Shown in pieces: positions 4,968 through 14,330 of a stretch of DNA of 50,400 nucleotides. The stretch's first letter is position 1. Each line of letters opens with the position of its first letter. Below the pieces are notes generated by a model, which searched no databases, had not been told where the DNA came from, and worked only from the letters and a program-made list of their open reading frames with translations. Origin of the DNA: Escherichia coli. Its GTDB lineage: Bacteria > Pseudomonadota > Gammaproteobacteria > Enterobacterales > Enterobacteriaceae. The translations under genes were made by a program, and so were the position numbers. The DNA is taken from NCBI RefSeq assembly GCF_003334335.1, contig NZ_QOWQ01000034.1, one strand, 5' to 3'.

Positions 4968-5646
4968 GGCCCTGCTGACAGCGGTCTGTATGCTGGCGGC
5001 ACCTTTGACACAGGCGATTTCGGTCGGCAATCTGACATTTTCGCTGCCGTCCGAGACTGACTTTGTCAGCAAACGTGTAGTGAATAACAACAAAAGCGCA
5101 CGGATATACCGTATTGCCATCAGTGCTATTGATAGCCCGGGCAGCAGTGAATTGCGCACCCGACCGGTGGATGTTGAACTGCTTTTCGCCCCCCGCCAGC
5201 TGGCGTTGCAGGCTGGTGAGAGCGAGTATTTTAAATTTTACTATCATGGTCCACGGGATAACCGCGAGCGCTACTACCGGGTCTCATTTCGCGAGGTCCC
5301 CACTCGTAACCATACAAGACGCAGCCCAACCGGCGGCGTGGTCAGCACGGAGCCGGTGGTGGTGATGGATACCATTCTGGTAGTACGACCACGTCAGGTT
5401 CAGTTTAAATGGTCCTTCGACAAGGTGACAGGAACGGTAAGTAACACTGGCAACACATGGTTTAAGCTACTGATTAAGCCAGGATGTGATTCGACCGAAG
5501 AGGAAGGCGATGCCTGGTATCTACGTCCGGGAGACGTGGTTCATCAGCCTGAGTTACGTCAGCCGGGGAATCACTATCTGGTCTATAACGACAAATTCAT
5601 TAAGATTAGCGATTCCTGTCCGGCTAAGCCCCCTTCGGCGGACTAA
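4936..5646 (+). CDS. ecpE: E. coli common pilus chaperone EcpE
   Basis: ORF 4891-5646; start chosen at internal ATG 4936 preceded by AGGAGA; overlaps ecpD 3' end by 32 nt. Confidence 0.8.
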
Positions 5647-5958
5647 GACTTATCCATCGGTCGAGGGAAGAATTCCACCTCAGAGCCCCAAAAATCGTTT
5701 AAATGATGTGGAAGCGATCGTCAATATCACCTGTAACGATGGGCTTTCTCATATGCACACCATAGTGTTCAGGAGACACGGAAAGGTATCAGGCAGCCTG
5801 CTAACGAGTGGTTTAATCACGAATTAGTACGTAAAATCGGTAACGGCTGGAAATCATTCAATACTCACACTATCGAAAGTTCCCCAGCCAACCGCGGTAC
5901 GTTCTTACATACGATGTACCGCTGTTCTCTTTACGATTTTTAGCTGTACTGGTGAATT

Positions 5959-6288
5959 ATGAGCAATCTGAATCCATGCATGACGTGTGGTGCCTGTTGT
6001 GCATTTTTCCGCGTCTCTTTTTACTGGGCCGAAGCCGACGATGCTGGCGGTACTATTCCCGCCAGGCTCACTGAACAAATATCCCCTTTTCACCGATGCA
6101 TGAGCGGTACCAATCAGAAAAACCCCCGATGTATTGCCCTTGCAGGAACCCCGGGCAAAAATGCCTGCTGCACGATATATAAAAATCGATCGTCCACATG
6201 CAGAGAATTCGCCATGTCTGGTGAGAACGGAGTCGTCAATGAGGCTTGCAATCGTGCAAGGGCTAAATACGGGCTGACACCGTTATAA
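5959..6288 (+). CDS. ykgJ: YkgJ-family cysteine-cluster protein (CxxCxxCC putative Zn/Fe-chelating domain)
   Basis: 109-aa ORF with CMTCGACC motif. Confidence 0.8.
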
Positions 6289-6493
6289 ACATACAATAAT
6301 TAATTGCACTGCCCCGCCAGCGATAATAGCGGGGCTTCGTTTTTCAGGGGTAACAAAACCCGATACTTCTTCTATTTGCCAGCAACAATGCCTCTCTTCT
6401 GTAGCGTTCTTCGGATCTACATCATCCTGAAGTAGCGCGATATACTCACTGACTATCTGCATCAGAATATAAAAAGCAATGTTTTTAACCTAT

Positions 6494-6524
6494 AAAAATG
6501 GCGCTGTATTTGCGCCATTTTTAT
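6494..6524. terminator. Bidirectional rho-independent terminator between convergent ykgJ and yagU
   Basis: Hairpin AAAATGGCGC-TGTATTT-GCGCCATTTT flanked by T/A runs on both strands. Confidence 0.55.
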
Positions 6525-6535
6525 CATTCAATGCA

Positions 6536-7150
6536 TTATCTGTTTGAGCCTAAAGGGATCTCAGGGTCTGGCTCATGAGTAATTCTGTTTCGTAAATCTC
6601 TGCGAATAATTTCAATAGACCAGAACCAGACTAAATGTCCAAAAATTTCAGAAACATTCTCATACCACGGGAGATCAAACAGAGGTGGCGTCAGTCCCAT
6701 GAGAGGGAATGAAATCATATGAACAAAAAGTTGGGCTAAAGCACCTGCCAGTAAGCCCTGCCAGAGTTTAATTTTTGGAAATACTTCAGCGACCACACAA
6801 TAACCGACAGCAAACACTATCGAAAAGATAATGTGCGTAACACCAACCCAGTTAAAGACATGCCCGGCAAAGGTATAAACAGCCGCATTGGGATCTGTCA
6901 GCCCCAACCAGTCTCGAAGAAAAATATACGGTGGATTGAGAAAATTACGCGAGCAATCAATTTGGCCTGCAGCCCTGATTAATGATTCCGGGCCACACGC
7001 TGCATTAAACATATCCACCGGGCTACGTGGCGGCAATGGAACTTCAGCCCCCCACTTCACGAATGCGGAAACAACGCCAGCAATCAGCCCAATGAATGCA
7101 GCAAGACCATAACGTCTGCGGTTCGGTGGAGTTTGTTCAAATATATTCAT
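6536..7150 (-). CDS. yagU: Inner membrane protein YagU (DUF1440 family)
   Basis: 204-aa ORF with hydrophobic segments; position between ykgJ and paoA. Confidence 0.85.
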
Positions 7151-7567
7151 ATCTACCCTGCTTGTACCATTATGTTATACACCTCTTCAGGAGTATTCAT
7201 AAAACAAGGCAAATGTAAAGAACTGTATTGTTTTGTATAACAAGATAGTTTCCTAATCGCCAATGAATATAAGCTCCATCATTTCTCCCTATTTTTATAT
7301 TAGAAGTGACAGAGATTTGCAGGGTGATGTAGAGCTGAAAATCACAGGTTTCCTTATTGGTTTTTGCATCGTACAACTAAAGCAATAAACCAGCTCCCAT
7401 CATCATCAACATCCCGGCGAACATGAATTTATTAGCCGGGCTCATAGCTGCATTCGCGTTTTAAGAATAATCCTCCTGCTGTCGCCGACTATGCTTAACG
7501 TTTAAAAAAGCATCAGCACTCTCGCAACGCACTCTTATTTTCCCCTTTAGAATACCGGAGGCCTGGT

Positions 7568-8257
7568 ATGAGCAACCAAGGCGAATACCCCGAAGATAAT
7601 CGGGTTGGGAAGCACGAGCCGCACGATTTAAGTTTGACCCGTCGCGATCTGATTAAAGTGAGCGCCGCAACAGCGGCGACCGCCGTGGTTTATCCTCATT
7701 CTACGCTGGCGGCAAGCGTTCCGGCAGCTACACCCGCGCCAGAGATAATGCCCCTGACACTGAAGGTGAACGGCAAAACCGAGCAGCTTGAGGTGGATAC
7801 CCGAACCACGCTACTGGACACTTTGCGTGAAAATCTGCATTTGATCGGTACCAAGAAAGGTTGCGATCACGGACAGTGCGGAGCCTGTACCGTGCTGGTC
7901 AATGGTCGCAGGCTTAATGCCTGCCTGACGCTTGCAGTCATGCATCAGGGGGCCGAGATCACCACCATTGAAGGCCTGGGTTCGCCAGATAATCTTCACC
8001 CCATGCAGGCGGCCTTTATCAAGCATGATGGCTTCCAGTGCGGCTACTGCACCTCCGGGCAAATTTGCTCATCAGTAGCGGTGCTAAAAGAGATTCAGGA
8101 CGGCATTCCCAGTCACGTCACGGTCGATTTGGTTTCCGCTCCAGAAACAACTGCCGATGAGATCCGTGAACGTATGAGCGGCAACATCTGTCGCTGTGGT
8201 GCATACGCTAACATCCTTGCCGCCATTGAAGATGCTGCGGGGGAGATAAAATCATGA
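7568..8257 (+). CDS. paoA: Periplasmic aldehyde oxidoreductase, 2Fe-2S ferredoxin subunit PaoA (Tat signal)
   Basis: 229 aa; twin-arginine motif LTRRDLIK; Cys clusters CxxGxCGxC and CGxC. Confidence 0.9.
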
Positions 8258-9210
8258 AGGCGTTTACCTATGAACGAGTGAATACCCCAGCCGAGGCGGC
8301 ACTTAGCGCTCAGCGCGTACCCGGCGCAAAATTTATCGCGGGCGGGACCAATCTGCTGGACCTGATGAAGCTGGAAATTGAAACGCCCACCCACCTTATC
8401 GATGTGAACGGCCTCGGGCTCGATAAGATTGAAGTGACCGACGCGGGTGGGCTGCGCATCGGCGCACTGGTACGGAACACCGACCTGGCGGCTCACGAGC
8501 GCGTGCGTCGTGATTACGCGGTACTCTCCCGCGCCCTGCTCGCTGGCGCGTCTGGTCAGTTACGTAATCAGGCAACCACCGCAGGTAATCTGCTCCAGCG
8601 CACGCGCTGCCCCTATTTTTACGACACCAATCAGCCCTGCAATAAGCGCCTGCCCGGGAGCGGCTGCGCGGCGCTTGAAGGCTTTAGCCGTCAGCACGCG
8701 GTGGTAGGCGTAAGCGAAGCCTGCATTGCCACCCATCCGAGCGATATGGCGGTCGCAATGCGGTTGCTGGATGCGGTGGTGGAAACCATCACGCCGGAGG
8801 GAAAGACTCGCAGTATCACACTGGCTGATTTTTATCACCCTCCGGGAAAAACGCCGCACATTGAAACCGCCCTGCTTCCCGGTGAGCTTATCGTTGCGGT
8901 GACGTTACCTCCACCGCTCGGCGGAAAACATATCTACCGTAAGGTGCGCGATCGCGCCTCCTACGCCTTTGCCCTGGTATCGGTCGCGGCGATTATTCAG
9001 CCTGACGGCAGCGGGCGCGTCGCGCTGGGCGGAGTAGCACATAAGCCCTGGCGCATTGAGGCTGCGGATGCTCAGCTATCCCAGGGGGCGCAGGCCGTAT
9101 ATGACACGCTGTTCGCCAGCGCCCATCCCACCGCTGAAAACACCTTTAAACTCCTGTTGGCGAAGCGAACGCTTGCCTCCGTACTGGCTGAAGCGAGGGC
9201 ACAGGCATGA
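8254..9210 (+). CDS. paoB: Aldehyde oxidoreductase FAD-binding subunit PaoB
   Basis: 318 aa; overlapping start/stop coupling with paoA and paoC. Confidence 0.9.
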
Positions 9211-11405
9211 AATTTGATAAACCCGCAGGGGAAAACCCGATCGATCAGCTGAAGGTTGTCGGTCGTCCCCATGACCGCATCGACGGACCGCTGAAAACTA
9301 CCGGCACGGCACGCTACGCCTACGAATGGCATGAAGAAGCCCCCAACGCCGCCTATGGCTATATCGTCGGTTCCGCCATTGCCAAAGGACGCCTCACCGC
9401 CCTTGATACGGACGCCGCGCAAAAAGCGCCGGGCGTACTGGCTGTCATTACCGCCAGTAACGCCGGGGCACTCGGCAAAGGCGACAAAAACACCGCCAGG
9501 CTGTTAGGCGGCCCCACTATTGAGCACTATCATCAGGCCATTGCGCTGGTAGTGGCCGAGACCTTCGAACAGGCGCGAGCGGCGGCCTCGCTGGTGCAGG
9601 CACACTATCGCCGTAATAAAGGAGCTTACTCCCTGGCGGACGAAAAACAGGCCGTCAATCAGCCGCCGGAAGACACGCCCGACAAAAACGTCGGTGACTT
9701 TGACGGGGCTTTCACCTCCGCTGCGGTGAAGATTGATGCTACCTACACGACCCCGGACCAGAGCCATATGGCGATGGAGCCGCATGCCTCGATGGCCGTC
9801 TGGGATGGAAATAAGCTTACCCTCTGGACCTCAAATCAGATGATTGACTGGTGCCGCACCGATCTGGCAAAAACGCTGAAAGTTCCCGTGGAGAATGTGC
9901 GTATTATCTCCCCGTATATCGGCGGAGGGTTTGGCGGCAAGCTGTTCCTGAGAAGCGATGCGCTGCTGGCGGCCCTCGCCGCCCGAGCGGTGAAACGTCC
10001 GGTTAAAGTGATGCTCCCCCGCCCCTCTATTCCCAATAACACCACGCACCGCCCCGCCACCCTTCAGCACTTGCGTATCGGTGCCGACCAGAGCGGGAAA
10101 ATCACCGCTATCTCACATGAAAGCTGGTCTGGAAACCTGCCCGGCGGCACGCCGGAAACGGCGGTACAGCAAAGCGAATTACTCTACGCCGGGGCGAATC
10201 GTCATACCGGCCTGCGGCTCGCCACGCTTGATTTGCCGGAAGGGAACGCCATGCGTGCGCCCGGCGAAGCCCCCGGTCTGATGGCGCTCGAAATCGCGAT
10301 CGACGAACTGGCGGAAAAAGCGGGCATCGATCCCGTCGAGTTTCGCATCCTGAATGACACTCAGGTTGACCCCGCCGACCCGACGCGCTGCTTCTCTCGC
10401 CGTCAGCTTATCGAGTGCTTGCGCACCGGAGCGGATAAATTTGGCTGGAAGCAGCGCAACGCCACACCCGGACAGGTGCGCGACGGGGAGTGGCTAGTCG
10501 GCCACGGTGTTGCGGCGGGCTTTCGCAATAATCTGCTGGAAAAATCGGGTGCTCGGGTTCACCTCGAACAAAACGGCACCGTTACCGTAGAAACGGACAT
10601 GACCGACATTGGCACCGGCAGCTACACCATTCTGGCCCAGACGGCAGCGGAAATGCTTGGCGTACCGCTGGAGCAGGTTGCGGTTCACCTCGGCGATTCC
10701 AGTTTCCCGGTTTCTGCGGGTTCTGGTGGACAATGGGGCGCGAATACCTCCACCTCCGGCGTTTACGCCGCCTGTATGAAGCTTCGCGAAATGATTGCCT
10801 CGGCAGTCGGGTTTGATCCTGAGCAGTCGCAGTTTGCCGACGGCAAGATTACCAACGGTACCCGAAGCGCCACGCTACATGAAGCCACCGCAGGCGGCAG
10901 ACTGACAGCGGAAGAGAGCATTGAATTCGGAACACTGAGCAAAGAGTACCAGCAGTCGACCTTTGCCGGGCATTTTGTGGAGGTCGGCGTGCATAGCGCG
11001 ACGGGAGAAGTTCGGGTCCGGCGTATGCTCGCTGTGTGTGCTGCAGGACGCATCCTGAATCCGAAAACTGCGCGCAGCCAGGTCATTGGCGCAATGACTA
11101 TGGGCATGGGCGCGGCACTGATGGAGGAGCTGGCGGTGGATGACCGTTTGGGCTACTTCGTTAATCACGATATGGCGGGGTATGAGGTGCCGGTTCATGC
11201 GGATATCCCAAAACAGGAGGTGATTTTCCTGGATGATACCGACCCCATATCCTCCCCGATGAAGGCCAAAGGTGTCGGTGAGCTGGGCCTGTGCGGCGTG
11301 AGCGCGGCTATCGCCAACGCGGTGTATAACGCCACCGGTATTCGGGTACGGGATTATCCCATCACTCTGGATAAGCTGCTCGATAAGCTGCCGGATGTGG
11401 TTTAA
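9207..11405 (+). CDS. paoC: Aldehyde oxidoreductase molybdopterin-binding catalytic subunit PaoC
   Basis: 732 aa; xanthine dehydrogenase-family large subunit. Confidence 0.9.
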
Positions 11406-11414
11406 GGAGGAACA

Positions 11415-12371
11415 ATGTCATACCCGCTTTTTGACAAAGACGAACACTGGCATAAGCCAGAGCAGGCGTTTCTCACCGATGACCACCGGACCATTCTGCG
11501 CTTCGCCGTAGAGGCGCTAATGTCCGGTAAAGGAGCGGTGCTGGTGACGCTGGTGGAGATACGCGGCGGCGCGGCGCGCCCGCTCGGGGCGCAGATGGTG
11601 GTGCGCGAAGATGGTCGTTACTGCGGTTTTGTCTCTGGCGGCTGCGTGGAGGCCGCTGCCGCTTTTGAAGCGCTGGAGATGATGGGCTCAGGCCGCGATC
11701 GCGAAATTCGCTATGGCGAAGGTTCGCCGTGGTTTGACATCGTTCTGCCCTGCGGCGGTGGGATCACGCTGACGCTCCATAAACTACGCTCGGCACAGCC
11801 TCTGCTCGCCGTGCTGAACCGCCTGGAACAGAGAAAACCGGTGGGGCTGCGCTACGATCCGCAAGCACAATCGCTGGTGTGCCTGCCCACGCAAACCCGG
11901 ACGGGCTGGAATCTCAATGGCTTTGAGGTGGGGTTCAGGCCATGCGTCAGGCTGATGATTTACGGACGTTCTCTTGAGGCGCAGGCAACCGCGAGTCTTG
12001 CAGCAGCCACAGGCTATGACAGCCATATCTTCGATCTTTTTCCGGCCTCAGCCAGCGCTCAGATCGATACCGATACGGCGGTCATTTTGCTGTGCCATGA
12101 TCTCAACCGGGAGCTGCCAGTGTTGCAGGCCGCGCGAGAAGCAAAACCCTTTTATCTCGGCGCATTGGGCAGCTATCGAACCCACACGTTACGTCTGCAA
12201 AAGCTCCACGAGCTGGGATGGTCCAGGGAGGAAACAACGCAAATCCGGGCACCCGTCGGGATATTCCCCAAAGCCCGGGATGCGCATACTCTGGCACTCT
12301 CCGTGCTGGCAGAAGTCGCCTCTGTACGTCTCCATCAGGAGGAGGATTCATGCCTGCCCCCGTCGTCCTGA
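11415..12371 (+). CDS. paoD: XdhC-family molybdenum cofactor insertion chaperone PaoD
   Basis: 318 aa; last gene of paoABCD. Confidence 0.85.
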   Translation: MSYPLFDKDEHWHKPEQAFLTDDHRTILRFAVEALMSGKGAVLVTLVEIRGGAARPLGAQMVVREDGRYCGFVSGGCVEAAAAFEALEMMGSGRDREIRYGEGSPWFDIVLPCGGGITLTLHKLRSAQPLLAVLNRLEQRKPVGLRYDPQAQSLVCLPTQTRTGWNLNGFEVGFRPCVRLMIYGRSLEAQATASLAAATGYDSHIFDLFPASASAQIDTDTAVILLCHDLNRELPVLQAAREAKPFYLGALGSYRTHTLRLQKLHELGWSREETTQIRAPVGIFPKARDAHTLALSVLAEVASVRLHQEEDSCLPPSS

Positions 12372-12760
12372 TCCTTGCGGCCGGGCGTGGAGAGCGCTTT
12401 CTCGCCTCCGGGGGAAATACCCATAAGTGTATCGGCTGGCGTCAGTCCCCGGAGGTTGCGCCTTATCGCTGGCCATTTGAAGAAAACGGGAGAACTTTCG
12501 ACCTTGCGATTGAACCGCAGATTACGACTAATGATCTGCGTCTGATGTTGAGGCTGGCTCTTGCCGGCGGAGGAATAACAATTGCCACTCAGGAAACTTT
12601 CAGGCCATATATTGAAAGCGGTAAGCTTGTATCGCTGCTTGATGACTTTCTTCCACAATTTCCGGGCTTCTATCTGTATTTCCCACAGCGTCGCAATATT
12701 GCACCAAAGCTCCGCGCCCTGATTGACTACGTCAAAGAATGGCGGCAGCAATTGGCTTAA
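12350..12760 (+). pseudogene. yagP: Chimeric remnant: nucleotidyltransferase-like (MocA/MobA-type) N-terminus fused to a LysR-family C-terminal fragment (yagP-like)
   Basis: ATG at 12350 after AGGAGG, overlapping paoD end; N-term MPAPVVLILAAGRGERF resembles MocA-type signature; C-terminal part resembles a LysR substrate-binding domain. Confidence 0.5.
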
Positions 12761-12885
12761 ATGTCTGCACCTGCACTGCCTGATGTCAGAACAGTATTTT
12801 GATGAATTGCCAAGGTTACAATGGCACAAATACGGCACAGGAGGAAACGTGGTGTATTTAAATATGGGGTAACTCTTTGATTTTA

Positions 12886-12961
12886 ATGGTGCCGATAATA
12901 GGAGTCGAACCTACGACCTTCGCATTACGAATGCGCTGCTCTACCAACTGAGCTATATCGG
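12886..12961 (-). tRNA. thrW: tRNA-Thr (anticodon CGU)
   Basis: 76-nt cloverleaf read on minus strand: acceptor GCCGATA/TATCGGC, TTCGACT T-loop, CGT anticodon, CCA end. Confidence 0.9.
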
Positions 12962-13076
12962 CCCTGAAAGGACATGTTCACGAACGTGAATCACGGTGGA
13001 CAAGGTTAAAACTAACCGGGCGATGCGTCAATGGCCTTGTGAATCAAATGGCTACTTTTGCATCACCCGGTTTTAT

Positions 13077-14330
13077 TTACGCACGAATGGTGTAATCACC
13101 AATGCCGATCCACTTGTAAGTGGTCAGTGCTTCCAGCCCCATTGGGCCACGCGCGTGGAGTTTTTGTGTGCTTACCGCCACTTCCGCACCCAGACCAAAC
13201 TGGCCGCCGTCGGTAAAACGCGTAGAGGCGTTAACGTAAACAGCGGACGAATCCACTTCGTTAACAAAACGCTGGGCGTTGCGCATATCGCGGGTCAGGA
13301 TCGCATCGGAGTGTTGTGTGCCGTGTTCACGAATATGGGCGATGGCATCGTCAAGATCGCTGACGATTTTGACGTTCAAATCTAATGACAGAAACTCATC
13401 GTCATACTCTTCGGCTTTAACAGCAACCACCTTCGCAGGGCCTGCCTGCAACTGCGCCAGTGCAGCTGCATCTGCGTGTAATGTCACGCCGCTTTCCGCC
13501 ATTTGTTTGCTTAATGCGGGCAGGAAGCTATCGGCGATGTTTTTATTCACCAGCAACGTTTCAACCGTATTACATGTGCTCGGACGCTGAGTTTTCGCGT
13601 TGACGATCACTTTTAATGCTTCAGCGATCTCTACACTTTCATCAACGTAAATATGGCATACGCCTATACCACCTGTGATCACCGGGATTGTCGACTGTTC
13701 ACGGCACAGTTTATGCAAACCAGCGCCACCACGCGGGATCAGCATGTCGATGTATTTATCCATACGCAGCATTTCACTGACCAGCGCACGGTCAGGATTA
13801 TCAATCGCCTGCACGGCACCCGCCGGTAAGCCGCAGGATTTCAGGGCGTCCTGAATCACCGCCACCGTTGCAGCGTTAGTGCGACACGTTTCTTTGCCAC
13901 CGCGCAGGATCACCGCATTACCGGTTTTCAGGCACAGCGAAGCGACATCAACCGTCACGTTCGGGCGCGCTTCATAAATCACGCCAATAACCCCCAGCGG
14001 TACGCGACGACGCTCAAGACGCAGGCCGCTGTCCAGTACGCCGCCATCGATTACCTGCCCCACCGGATCGGCGAGGTTGCACACCTGACGTACATCGTCG
14101 GCAATGCCTTTCAGCCGTGCGGGCGTCAGTGCCAGACGGTCAAGCATCGCTTCGCTAAGGCCATTGGCTCGCGCGTCAGCAACATCCTGGGCGTTAGCGT
14201 TGAGGATGATTTCGCTTTGTGCTTCCAGTTCATCGGCGATTTTTTCCAGCACGCGATTTTTTTCGCGGCTGGAGAGTTGCGCTAATTTATACGAGGCTTG
14301 CTTCGCGGCAATGCCCATTTGTTCCAGCAT
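13077..14330 (-). CDS. proA: Gamma-glutamyl phosphate reductase
   Basis: 417 aa; position after proB. Confidence 0.92.

Follow-up and report, generated by a model that had tools for sequence, protein, structure and literature searches.

Here, we report that in this Escherichia coli genome the DNA between paoD and the tRNA gene thrW, an integration site that is currently empty, is very probably a scar left by two losses in succession, and that the short gene yagP found at this scar is most likely a non-functional relic. The window, i.e., the whole stretch of 50.4 kb that was analyzed, is 100% identical in this region to E. coli ATCC 8739 (Crooks), and the annotations under the match are paoD, a LysR-substrate-binding CDS, and tRNA-Thr. 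The observation at the yagP locus is real and ordinary: the gene and the empty thrW site are already known, and the origin of the 5′ stub of yagP is a small new detail; no mention of a MocA-derived N terminus was found in the literature on yagP. The features are collected in Table 1.

Table 1. Features of the paoD–yagP–thrW region in window coordinates.
Feature	Position	Strand	Basis
paoD (yagQ), XdhC-family molybdenum-cofactor insertion chaperone	11415-12371	+	ORF; RefSeq annotation of 100%-identical matches; NCBIfam XdhC-family matches
Shine-Dalgarno-like AGGAGGAGG	12337-12345	+	read from the sequence; 4 nt before the yagP ATG
yagP, chimeric 136-codon ORF, ortholog of K-12 b0282	12350-12760	+	135/136 identical to K-12
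5′ stub of a lost pao-linked MobA/MocA-like nucleotidyltransferase gene, ~26 codons, MPAPVVLILAAGRGERFLASGGNTHK	12350-12426	+	homology to intact genes adjoining paoD
C5 homopolymer within the paoD/yagP overlap	12357-12361	+	window sequence versus proteins P0007 and P0003
Deletion junction, 5-bp microhomology CATAA	12422-12426	+	present in both parental sequences; alignment to L087 and three-way alignment
3′ third of a LysR-family regulator gene (residues 187-299 of 299 aa, plus stop), native frame	12422-12760	+	homology; Pfam
Native LysR–thrW intergenic spacer, 126 bp	12761-12886		collinear with the DNA 3′ of the full-length O157:H7 LysR gene
Lone, unoccupied copy of the 70-bp segment that flanks CP4-6 on both sides in K-12	12869-12938		overlap of two K-12 alignments
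thrW, tRNA-Thr(CGT)	12887-12962	-	ARAGORN; Rfam tRNA, 71.8 bits

paoD is the last intact gene of paoABCD, and the yagP ATG overlaps its stop codon by 22 nt; the Shine-Dalgarno sequence AGGAGGAGG is inherited from the ancestral gene 3′ of paoD. The next gene beyond thrW is proA (13077-14330, minus strand). The first-pass annotation had placed the elements of this locus at 12350-12961; all of them are present there, except that the tRNA runs one base further, to 12962, and the gap of about 125 bp that it gave between the LysR-fragment ORF and the tRNA 3′ end measures 126 bp. PaoD-YagP fusion proteins of 448 aa and a 336-aa PaoD variant occur in some assemblies; judged from the reading frames, a one-base gain in the C5 homopolymer would yield the former and a one-base loss the latter.

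YagP is chimeric, as had been suspected from the window sequence. Residues 24-136 correspond to the C-terminal end (residues 187-299) of a LysR regulator of 299 aa, 110 of the 113 being identical to WP_000687183.1 of O157:H7, a bona fide full-length member of the family. Pfam places the LysR substrate-binding domain (PF03466) on residues 24-131, at model positions 103-207 of 209 (E 1.5e-14), and the C-terminal part also gives weak matches to the YafC, GcvA, and TtdR models. The effector-binding domain is incomplete, i.e., PF03466 positions 1-102 are missing, and there is no match to the helix-turn-helix (PF00126), the fragment beginning at parent residue 187. Residues 1-26, in turn, match the start of a ~184-aa PF12804 gene. 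PF12804 itself was not detected by Pfam in the 136-aa ORF, which does not hold a complete nucleotidyltransferase domain of ~160-190 residues, and NCBIfam returned nothing significant for stub peptides of 26 and 35 aa; since such peptides are too short for profile HMMs, we used orthologous loci instead. The peptide LILAAGRGERF (YagP residues 7-17) aligns with the glycine-rich motif L/T-A-A/G-G-x-G/S-x-R-M/F of the intact orthologs and of E. coli MocA. A protein search with YagP returned mostly fragments; the 136-aa architecture occurs in E. coli alone, with many shorter broken variants besides, and the short ORF is thus not an intact conserved gene elsewhere.

What the N-terminal stub once belonged to is seen in other genera. 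Among the PaoD loci outside E. coli we compared the closest 39 (L003-L041, PaoD 52-89% identical), and in 33 of them an intact ORF of 177-197 aa that starts with a homolog of the stub adjoins paoD; 29 of these genes are co-directional and abut or overlap paoD, and four lie on the opposite strand ~560 nt downstream. The full-length mocA-like gene that the first-pass annotation suggested looking for downstream of other pao operons is therefore present, and the stub has intact orthologs from this family at the equivalent place in the chromosome. In BLASTP the stub peptide matches the ORF directly 3′ of paoD in >30 species (E 6.5e-18 to 1e-5), while the remaining ~6,900 ORFs at those loci gave no comparable match; this homology strongly confirms the nucleotidyltransferase-like N terminus that the first-pass annotation had noted. 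The 22-nt overlap of ATG and paoD stop is shared by the intact genes of L003 (5936 versus 5957) and L085 (1755 versus 1776); gene calls at L085 and L086 carry PF12804 directly after the XdhC-family PaoD. The L003 protein matches PF12804 at E 2.6e-23, its top NCBIfam model is TIGR03310 (MocA/YgfJ) with PucB next, and its best PDB sequence matches are MobA/MocA-related proteins. Against the MocA equivalog model it reaches 84.7 bits, short of the curated cutoff of 186.45, and over 115 residues it shares ~21% identity with E. coli MocA.

Ancestrally, the pao operon of E. coli had a fifth gene. It encoded a MobA-like NTP transferase (MocA/PucB type) of ~184 aa, its ATG and the paoD stop formed a 22-nt overlap, and given this overlap it was probably translationally coupled to paoD. 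Its intact orthologs mark the ancestral gene as a predicted MobA/MocA-like nucleotidyltransferase. The first-pass annotation had called it a truncated cytidylyltransferase gene; the loss of a MocA-like gene stands, and cytidylyltransferase activity would follow from the family and the operon context, CTP specificity from the operon context only, the MocA score lying under its cutoff and the identity to MocA being so low. In E. coli, the molybdopterin cytosine dinucleotide of PaoABC is supplied by MocA (YgfJ), whose gene is unlinked and for which an interaction with PaoD has been reported (PMC3909100).

The truncation came first. With the intact gene as blastn query against 5426 complete E. coli genomes, no place was covered by >15% at blastn sensitivity and none kept >81 nt; all matches end at one of two points, nt 81 in the undeleted type and nt 77 in the deleted type. 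Please note that this distant search gave a stub match in 1046 genomes, so that truncation in all E. coli means the absence of a longer match. A tblastn search for a 3′ transferase remnant in the window, K-12, O157:H7, and AR_0015 found the stub alone. In the undeleted haplotypes (O157:H7, AR_0015), a homologous stub of 27 codons lies inside a 35-codon ORF and is followed by a 6.1-kb gene block in the order MFS transporter, alpha/beta hydrolase, LysR, ykgR′, hypothetical gene, SDR oxidoreductase, and a second LysR adjoining thrW. The transferase gene was cut after codon 27, leaving the stub abutting the MFS-to-LysR block, a state common to all the E. coli haplotypes examined; the truncation is old and common to every E. 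coli haplotype still showing the stub.

The fusion is explained by a second loss. Window positions 11400-12426 align to 5525-6550 of the undeleted locus L087 and positions 12422-12903 to its 12680-13160, i.e., 6.13 kb are deleted across the 5-bp microhomology CATAA. At the junction there is no att-like or IS sequence, the 5-bp microhomology being all that is found, and the deletion keeps the native 126-bp LysR-thrW spacer and the att core. This K-12-type junction occurs in 2684/5426 complete genomes (49%), and a separate lineage (L088-type) carries an independent deletion with another, shorter LysR fragment. The lineage that led to K-12, BL21/C41, and ATCC 8739 lost, through the 6.13-kb deletion, the whole stretch between the stub and codon 186/187 of the LysR gene nearest thrW; the two frames were joined in phase by chance, giving the 136-codon yagP ORF.

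Next to this scar the thrW site is empty, as the first-pass annotation had stated; it happens to be so in this strain. The site is contiguous here as in 948 of the 5426 complete E. coli genomes (17.5%), and it is tabulated as empty in Crooks in a comparison of laboratory strains (PMC3032704). The 3′ half of the tRNA gives one match in the 50.4-kb window with none expected by chance, there is no integrase or phage ORF between yagP and proA, and neither an integrase adjacent to the tRNA nor a direct repeat of its 3′ end at a far end is found. Attachment-site repeats had been proposed as a check; around thrW neither extra att copies nor island scars turned up, nearby repeats being at chance level (12 nt), and the single copy is consistent with an empty site. 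The 126-bp spacer shows no terminator-like site and no island remnant, and Rfam finds the tRNA alone. The presence of CP4-6 at thrW in K-12, also given in that annotation, is confirmed: CP4-6 (262898-297205) sits between thrW and yagP as a 34.2-kb insert relative to the window, with a copy at either end of the 70-bp segment found once at window 12869-12938, which comprises the 3′ 52 nt of thrW and 18 nt downstream. The att core is intact and single-copy here, with no integrated island and no visible scar of one.

Could truncation and fusion have been made together, by site-specific or imprecise excision of a thrW island? The first-pass annotation had ascribed both to past recombination at this hotspot, and thrW is indeed a heavily used integration site (interrupted in ~82% of complete E. 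coli genomes, with tandem islands in O157:H7), the right end of the deletion lying ~465 bp from the tRNA. However, the undeleted haplotypes already carry the truncated stub, which makes truncation and fusion two events; the thrW-proximal LysR third, the spacer, and the whole att core are kept, although imprecise excision would take the att-adjacent DNA first; and the junction is that of a plain microhomology deletion. Since the attachment site is left untouched, the deletion was not integrase-driven, and nothing ties the fusion to site-specific recombination at thrW. We consider a common origin by excision highly unlikely, and imprecise island excision was rejected as the cause of the fusion. 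The likeness of the N terminus to nucleotidyltransferases might also be due to chance or be forced by the coding overlap with paoD, given that profile HMMs give the 26-aa peptide no significant score and that 22 of the 77 stub nucleotides lie inside paoD. The other 55 nucleotides lie outside paoD, however; the peptide is 77-89% identical to the syntenic intact genes in the eight closest loci, with E values down to 6.5e-18 and solely on the gene adjoining paoD among ~7,000 ORFs; and the DNA identity to L003 (83-88% over 77-81 nt) stops abruptly at nt 77-81. Chance likeness is close to inconceivable and is effectively refuted, and the intact gene of L003 does belong to PF12804 by its score.

It may further be asked whether YagP is a functional new gene, coupled to paoD and acting as a ligand-binding module, as an inhibitor pairing with LysR-type regulators, or as a partner of PaoD. 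Its Shine-Dalgarno sequence is near-perfect and is kept together with the paoD-overlapping ATG, so that translation of yagP may well occur; all deletion-type genomes sampled carry the ORF intact and with a CDS annotation, and in K-12 it now stands as an annotated protein; and YagP is a low-scoring peptide-mass match in one 2-D gel study (PMC3342100). Compared with the intact O157 LysR gene, the window has seven differences in 339 nt (113 codons), of which five are synonymous and two non-synonymous, a ratio that leans toward function on numbers too few to judge constraint. On the other hand, the deletion arose within the species, and an intact 411-nt ORF is therefore expected without selection. 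The product has just the first beta-strand and the glycine-rich loop of the transferase (26 residues); of the regulator it retains the C-terminal half of the effector-binding domain, with neither the first half nor a helix-turn-helix. The fusion is absent in about half of E. coli, another lineage has its own shorter LysR fragment, many truncated variants exist, and the conserved Arg in the stub motif is mutated in K-12. A functional YagP thus seems quite unlikely, and a protein without a DNA-binding domain and a transferase fold is most likely a non-functional relic. A more specific scenario, in which YagP is made via the inherited paoD-coupled start and has been co-opted, e.g., as a small effector-binding or PaoD/MocA-interacting protein tuning PaoABC maturation in the fusion-carrying half of E. 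coli, has a smaller chance still; if true, it would be a gene birth from two pseudogene fragments.

The relic reading of yagP leaves the current understanding of any mechanism unchanged, and its practical use lies chiefly in annotation. It does suggest that yagP is better annotated as a fusion pseudogene than as a LysR-like protein, and that paoABCD of E. coli is a reduced version of an operon of five genes, which many Enterobacterales still have in full. The pao-linked nucleotidyltransferase of genera such as Leclercia, Enterobacter, Cronobacter, and Mixta may be a dedicated MCD synthase handing the cofactor to PaoD, and E. coli could conceivably have dispensed with it, its function being covered by the unlinked MocA. 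The K-12-type junction, the L088-type deletion, and the occupancy of thrW are also convenient markers of the history of E. coli lineages.

Compared with known systems, K-12 yagP (b0282) is the same gene with the same paoD overlap and the same deletion junction; it differs from the window in having CP4-6 between yagP and thrW and in the substitution R16C within the conserved GxGxR motif of the stub. The K-12 annotation, [quoted passage not shown], covers the LysR part and omits the first 26 codons, which are transferase-derived. WP_000687183.1, found in O157:H7 and other undeleted E. coli and divergent from the SDR oxidoreductase gene, is the parent of YagP residues 24-136, with 97% identity and the same 3′ flank up to thrW; in contrast to that locus, the window is without codons 1-186, which encode the helix-turn-helix and the front half of the effector-binding domain, and without the divergent SDR target gene. 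CP4-6 and other thrW islands use the same attachment site as that of the window, whereas the window site is one att copy without integrase and without leftover island DNA. The intact orthologs of the stub share the family PF12804 with MocA (YgfJ) and PucB, whose NCBIfam models are their best, and the stub shares the MocA-type N-terminal AAG-x-G-x-R motif; these orthologs fall below the MocA equivalog cutoff, and the window keeps just 26 of ~184 codons. Finally, the intact orthologs stand directly after an XdhC-family chaperone gene, as do the XdhC-linked MocA/PucB homologs of B. subtilis (pucA-pucB) and of Arthrobacter and Oligotropha (xdhC-mocA), and the pairing of xdhC with mocA is an arrangement described in other bacteria (PMC2997495).

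From 12200 to 13000 the window matches E. coli ATCC 8739 (Crooks) at 100% identity; the RefSeq features beneath the match are paoD and tRNA-Thr, together with a CDS named "LysR substrate-binding domain-containing protein". The yagP ATG lies 22 nt within paoD and 4 nt past AGGAGGAGG, and 126 bp separate the yagP stop from the thrW 3' end. YagP of the window and of K-12 are identical at 135 of 136 residues, the sole difference being Arg16 in the window versus Cys in K-12 (codon at 12395-12397); the Arg of this GxGxR motif is present in the window, in all intact orthologs and in E. coli MocA. A GGA repeat, which serves as Shine-Dalgarno sequence and also encodes the PaoD C terminus, differs by 3 nt between the window (AGGAGGAGGA, 12337-12346) and strain AR_0015 (AGGAGGA, L002 6138-6144), so that PaoD is 318 aa in the former and 317 aa in the latter. 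Where paoD and yagP overlap there is a C5 run (12357-12361). PaoD-YagP fusions of 448 aa (e.g., P0007, 11 contigs) or a 336-aa PaoD whose tail is altered (P0003) are encoded in some E. coli assemblies; these variants are consistent with one C more or one C fewer in the run and could be either real slippage or sequencing errors.

Coordinates of the features around yagP in the window
Feature	Position	Strand	Basis or remark
paoD	11415-12371		ORF
yagP ORF, 136 codons	12350-12760	plus	ortholog of K-12 yagP (b0282)
thrW, tRNA-Thr(CGT)	12887-12962	minus	ARAGORN + Rfam
proA	13077-14330		other side of thrW; then proB, phoE

An alignment of PaoD sequences was used to collect 80 paoD loci (contigs, one genome per species). 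Among the best 39 (L003-L041; PaoD 52-89% identical; Enterobacterales for the most part), 33 have an ORF of 177-197 aa that starts with a close homolog of MPAPVVLILAAGRGERFLASGGNTHK, co-directional with and abutting or overlapping the paoD end in 29 and on the opposite strand ~560 nt downstream in four Pantoea-type loci. When the 26-mer was used as a short BLASTP query against the 6,961 ORFs (≥60 aa) of these loci, the paoD-linked genes gave E values of 6.5e-18 to ~1e-5 and all other ORFs E > 1. The closest loci have the start/stop geometry of the window, i.e., a 22-nt overlap in both L003 (ATG 5936, paoD stop end 5957) and L085 (1755 and 1776). The nucleotidyltransferase-like N terminus noticed in the first-pass annotation is thus the start of a gene found at full length after paoD elsewhere, and the first 26 yagP codons, judged from sequence, derive from a lost gene of this kind.

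In L003 the protein belongs to the MobA-like NTP transferases (PF12804, E 2.6e-23). Among NCBIfam models it scores best with MocA/YgfJ (TIGR03310; 84.7 bits, under the curated 186-bit cutoff), the DVU_1551-type NTP transferase and PucB, and its top PDB sequence matches are "MobA/MocA-related" proteins. Its identity to E. coli MocA is only ~21%. In public records these proteins mostly go by the name "nucleotidyltransferase family protein", with "molybdenum cofactor cytidylyltransferase" used occasionally. Genes for XdhC-family chaperones are paired with mocA/pucB homologs in Bacillus, Arthrobacter and Oligotropha (PMC2997495); MCD is bound by PaoC, and MocA is reported to pass MCD to PaoD (PMC2997495, PMC3909100). 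From the protein family, this pairing and the link of PaoC and PaoD to MCD, it is reasonable to infer a role of the lost gene in making the Pao cofactor, as had been proposed; the loss of a nucleotidyltransferase gene after paoD is the firmer part of that proposal.

The intact L003 gene, searched in sensitive mode against all complete E. coli genomes, is matched over its first 77-81 nt only (83-88% identity), and nowhere is more than 15% of it covered. In AR_0015 and O157:H7, neither of which has the K-12-type deletion join within yagP, the ORF after paoD has 35 codons (MPASIVLILAAGRGERFLTSGGNTHKL-REKSAVAV and a stop), and its transferase homology ends after codon 27. From this stub to thrW come genes for an MFS transporter, an alpha/beta hydrolase, a LysR regulator, a ykgR fragment, a hypothetical protein, an SDR and a full-length LysR regulator, and a tblastn search of these loci for the 3' part of the transferase was negative. 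Since these undeleted haplotypes share the short homology and retain no 3' piece, the truncation is common to all E. coli haplotypes seen and older than the fusion.

On YagP, Pfam finds LysR_substrate only (residues 24-131, model positions 103-207 of 209) and no helix-turn-helix. O157:H7 has a 299-aa LysR regulator (WP_000687183.1), divergent from the SDR oxidoreductase gene, whose 3' flank toward the thrW att region is that of yagP; its residues 187-299 and YagP 24-136 are identical at 110 of 113 positions, which places the origin of the C-terminal three quarters of YagP, by homology, in the LysR gene. Window 11400-12426 aligns with O157 locus L087 5525-6550 and window 12422-12903 with L087 12680-13160, so the window lacks a segment of 6.13 kb. 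The five bases CATAA at the join are common to both parental sequences, and the reading frames are in phase across it by chance. A 200-nt junction-centred probe was at least 80% covered in 2684 of 5426 genomes. Truncation and fusion are two events, not one: of the earlier proposal that recombination at the hotspot truncated the gene and fused it to a regulator fragment, both outcomes stand and the single event does not. The deletion spares the att core and the native spacer, as well as the final third of the LysR gene, which speaks against imprecise island excision or integrase action.

A third haplotype of this interval (L088, NZ_OZ392484.1, 4652-5434) keeps the MFS-hydrolase-LysR block, but an independent deletion took out the SDR and hypothetical genes and cut ~220 codons from the LysR gene nearest thrW. 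A different, 77-codon LysR fragment remains beside an empty thrW; the interval has decayed more than once.

In the K-12 record, CP4-6 begins within thrW (262898) and ends at 297205; intF, yagP and paoD come next. The window aligns with K-12 in two blocks, 12300-12938 on the yagP side and 12869-13300 on the proA side, and their overlap (12869-12938) is the 70-bp segment duplicated at both CP4-6 ends, comprising 52 nt of the thrW 3' end and 18 nt downstream. In the window this segment is single-copy, and no integrase or phage ORF lies at thrW, in agreement with the earlier reading of an unoccupied site. A search for attachment-site repeats gave nothing meaningful flanking the segment, and in the whole 50.4 kb (≤3 mismatches allowed) the tRNA itself is the only match to its 3' half. 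The LysR 3' end, thrW and the proA side are contiguous in 948 of 5426 complete E. coli genomes (17.5%); the remaining ones are interrupted inside or just beyond the tRNA, often with an annotated integrase. A published comparison of laboratory strains gives thrW as unoccupied in Crooks, W and B and as the site of CP4-6 in K-12 (PMC3032704). O157:H7 has at least two tandem elements there, with extra thrW 3'-end copies between them (L087 13144-13160, 26030-26076); one of the elements, a P4-like island, carries primase-helicase, Icd-like, polarity-suppression, Ogr/Delta, "ABC-three component system" and integrase genes, and further phage DNA lies beyond it.

Does YagP have a function? From a Rossmann-like transferase the product would retain one beta-strand plus the glycine-rich loop; the rest would be half the effector-binding domain of a LysR protein, and a DNA-binding domain would be lacking. 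Most likely it does nothing, and we hold its reading as a relic with high confidence. Co-option to a new role would account for the retained Shine-Dalgarno sequence and overlapping start, for an ORF unbroken in every sampled genome and for one low-score proteomic listing of YagP (PMC3342100); we nevertheless regard it as very improbable, as the 136-aa architecture, instead of recurring elsewhere as an intact conserved gene, is confined to E. coli beside many shorter variants, and in K-12 the motif of the stub has already lost its conserved Arg, an anecdotal sign of no constraint on the stub. The count of synonymous to non-synonymous changes (5:2) is uninformative.

Orthologs of genes in the deleted E. 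coli segment adjoin paoD in distant species. L005 (Mixta sp., 6591-7916) has an intact transferase gene followed by LysR (57% identical) and SDR genes; in L032 (Frateuria defendens, 5958-10390) the genes after paoD encode LysR, alpha/beta hydrolase, MFS (63% identical) and SDR proteins, and a search of the locus for the stub gave no match. These gene orders suggest an old functional or transfer linkage of pao with the LysR/hydrolase/MFS/SDR module. E. coli PaoD is 86-89% identical to PaoD of L003 (an "uncultured Pluralibacter" MAG), L085 and P0124 (Enterobacter oligotrophicus) and at most 72% identical to that of the named Enterobacteriaceae genera recovered (e.g., Leclercia 72%, Citrobacter 64%); horizontal transfer of the pao operon among these lineages may have occurred.

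In the literature searched we found no statement tracing the first 26 yagP codons, as a stub, to a pao-linked gene of the MocA family, nor any mention of a five-gene pao operon in relatives, and we consider these two points a small, tidy addition. The yagP gene and the empty thrW of this strain are already annotated or published, and a deletion-made fusion pseudogene next to a tRNA integration hotspot is a familiar type of object.
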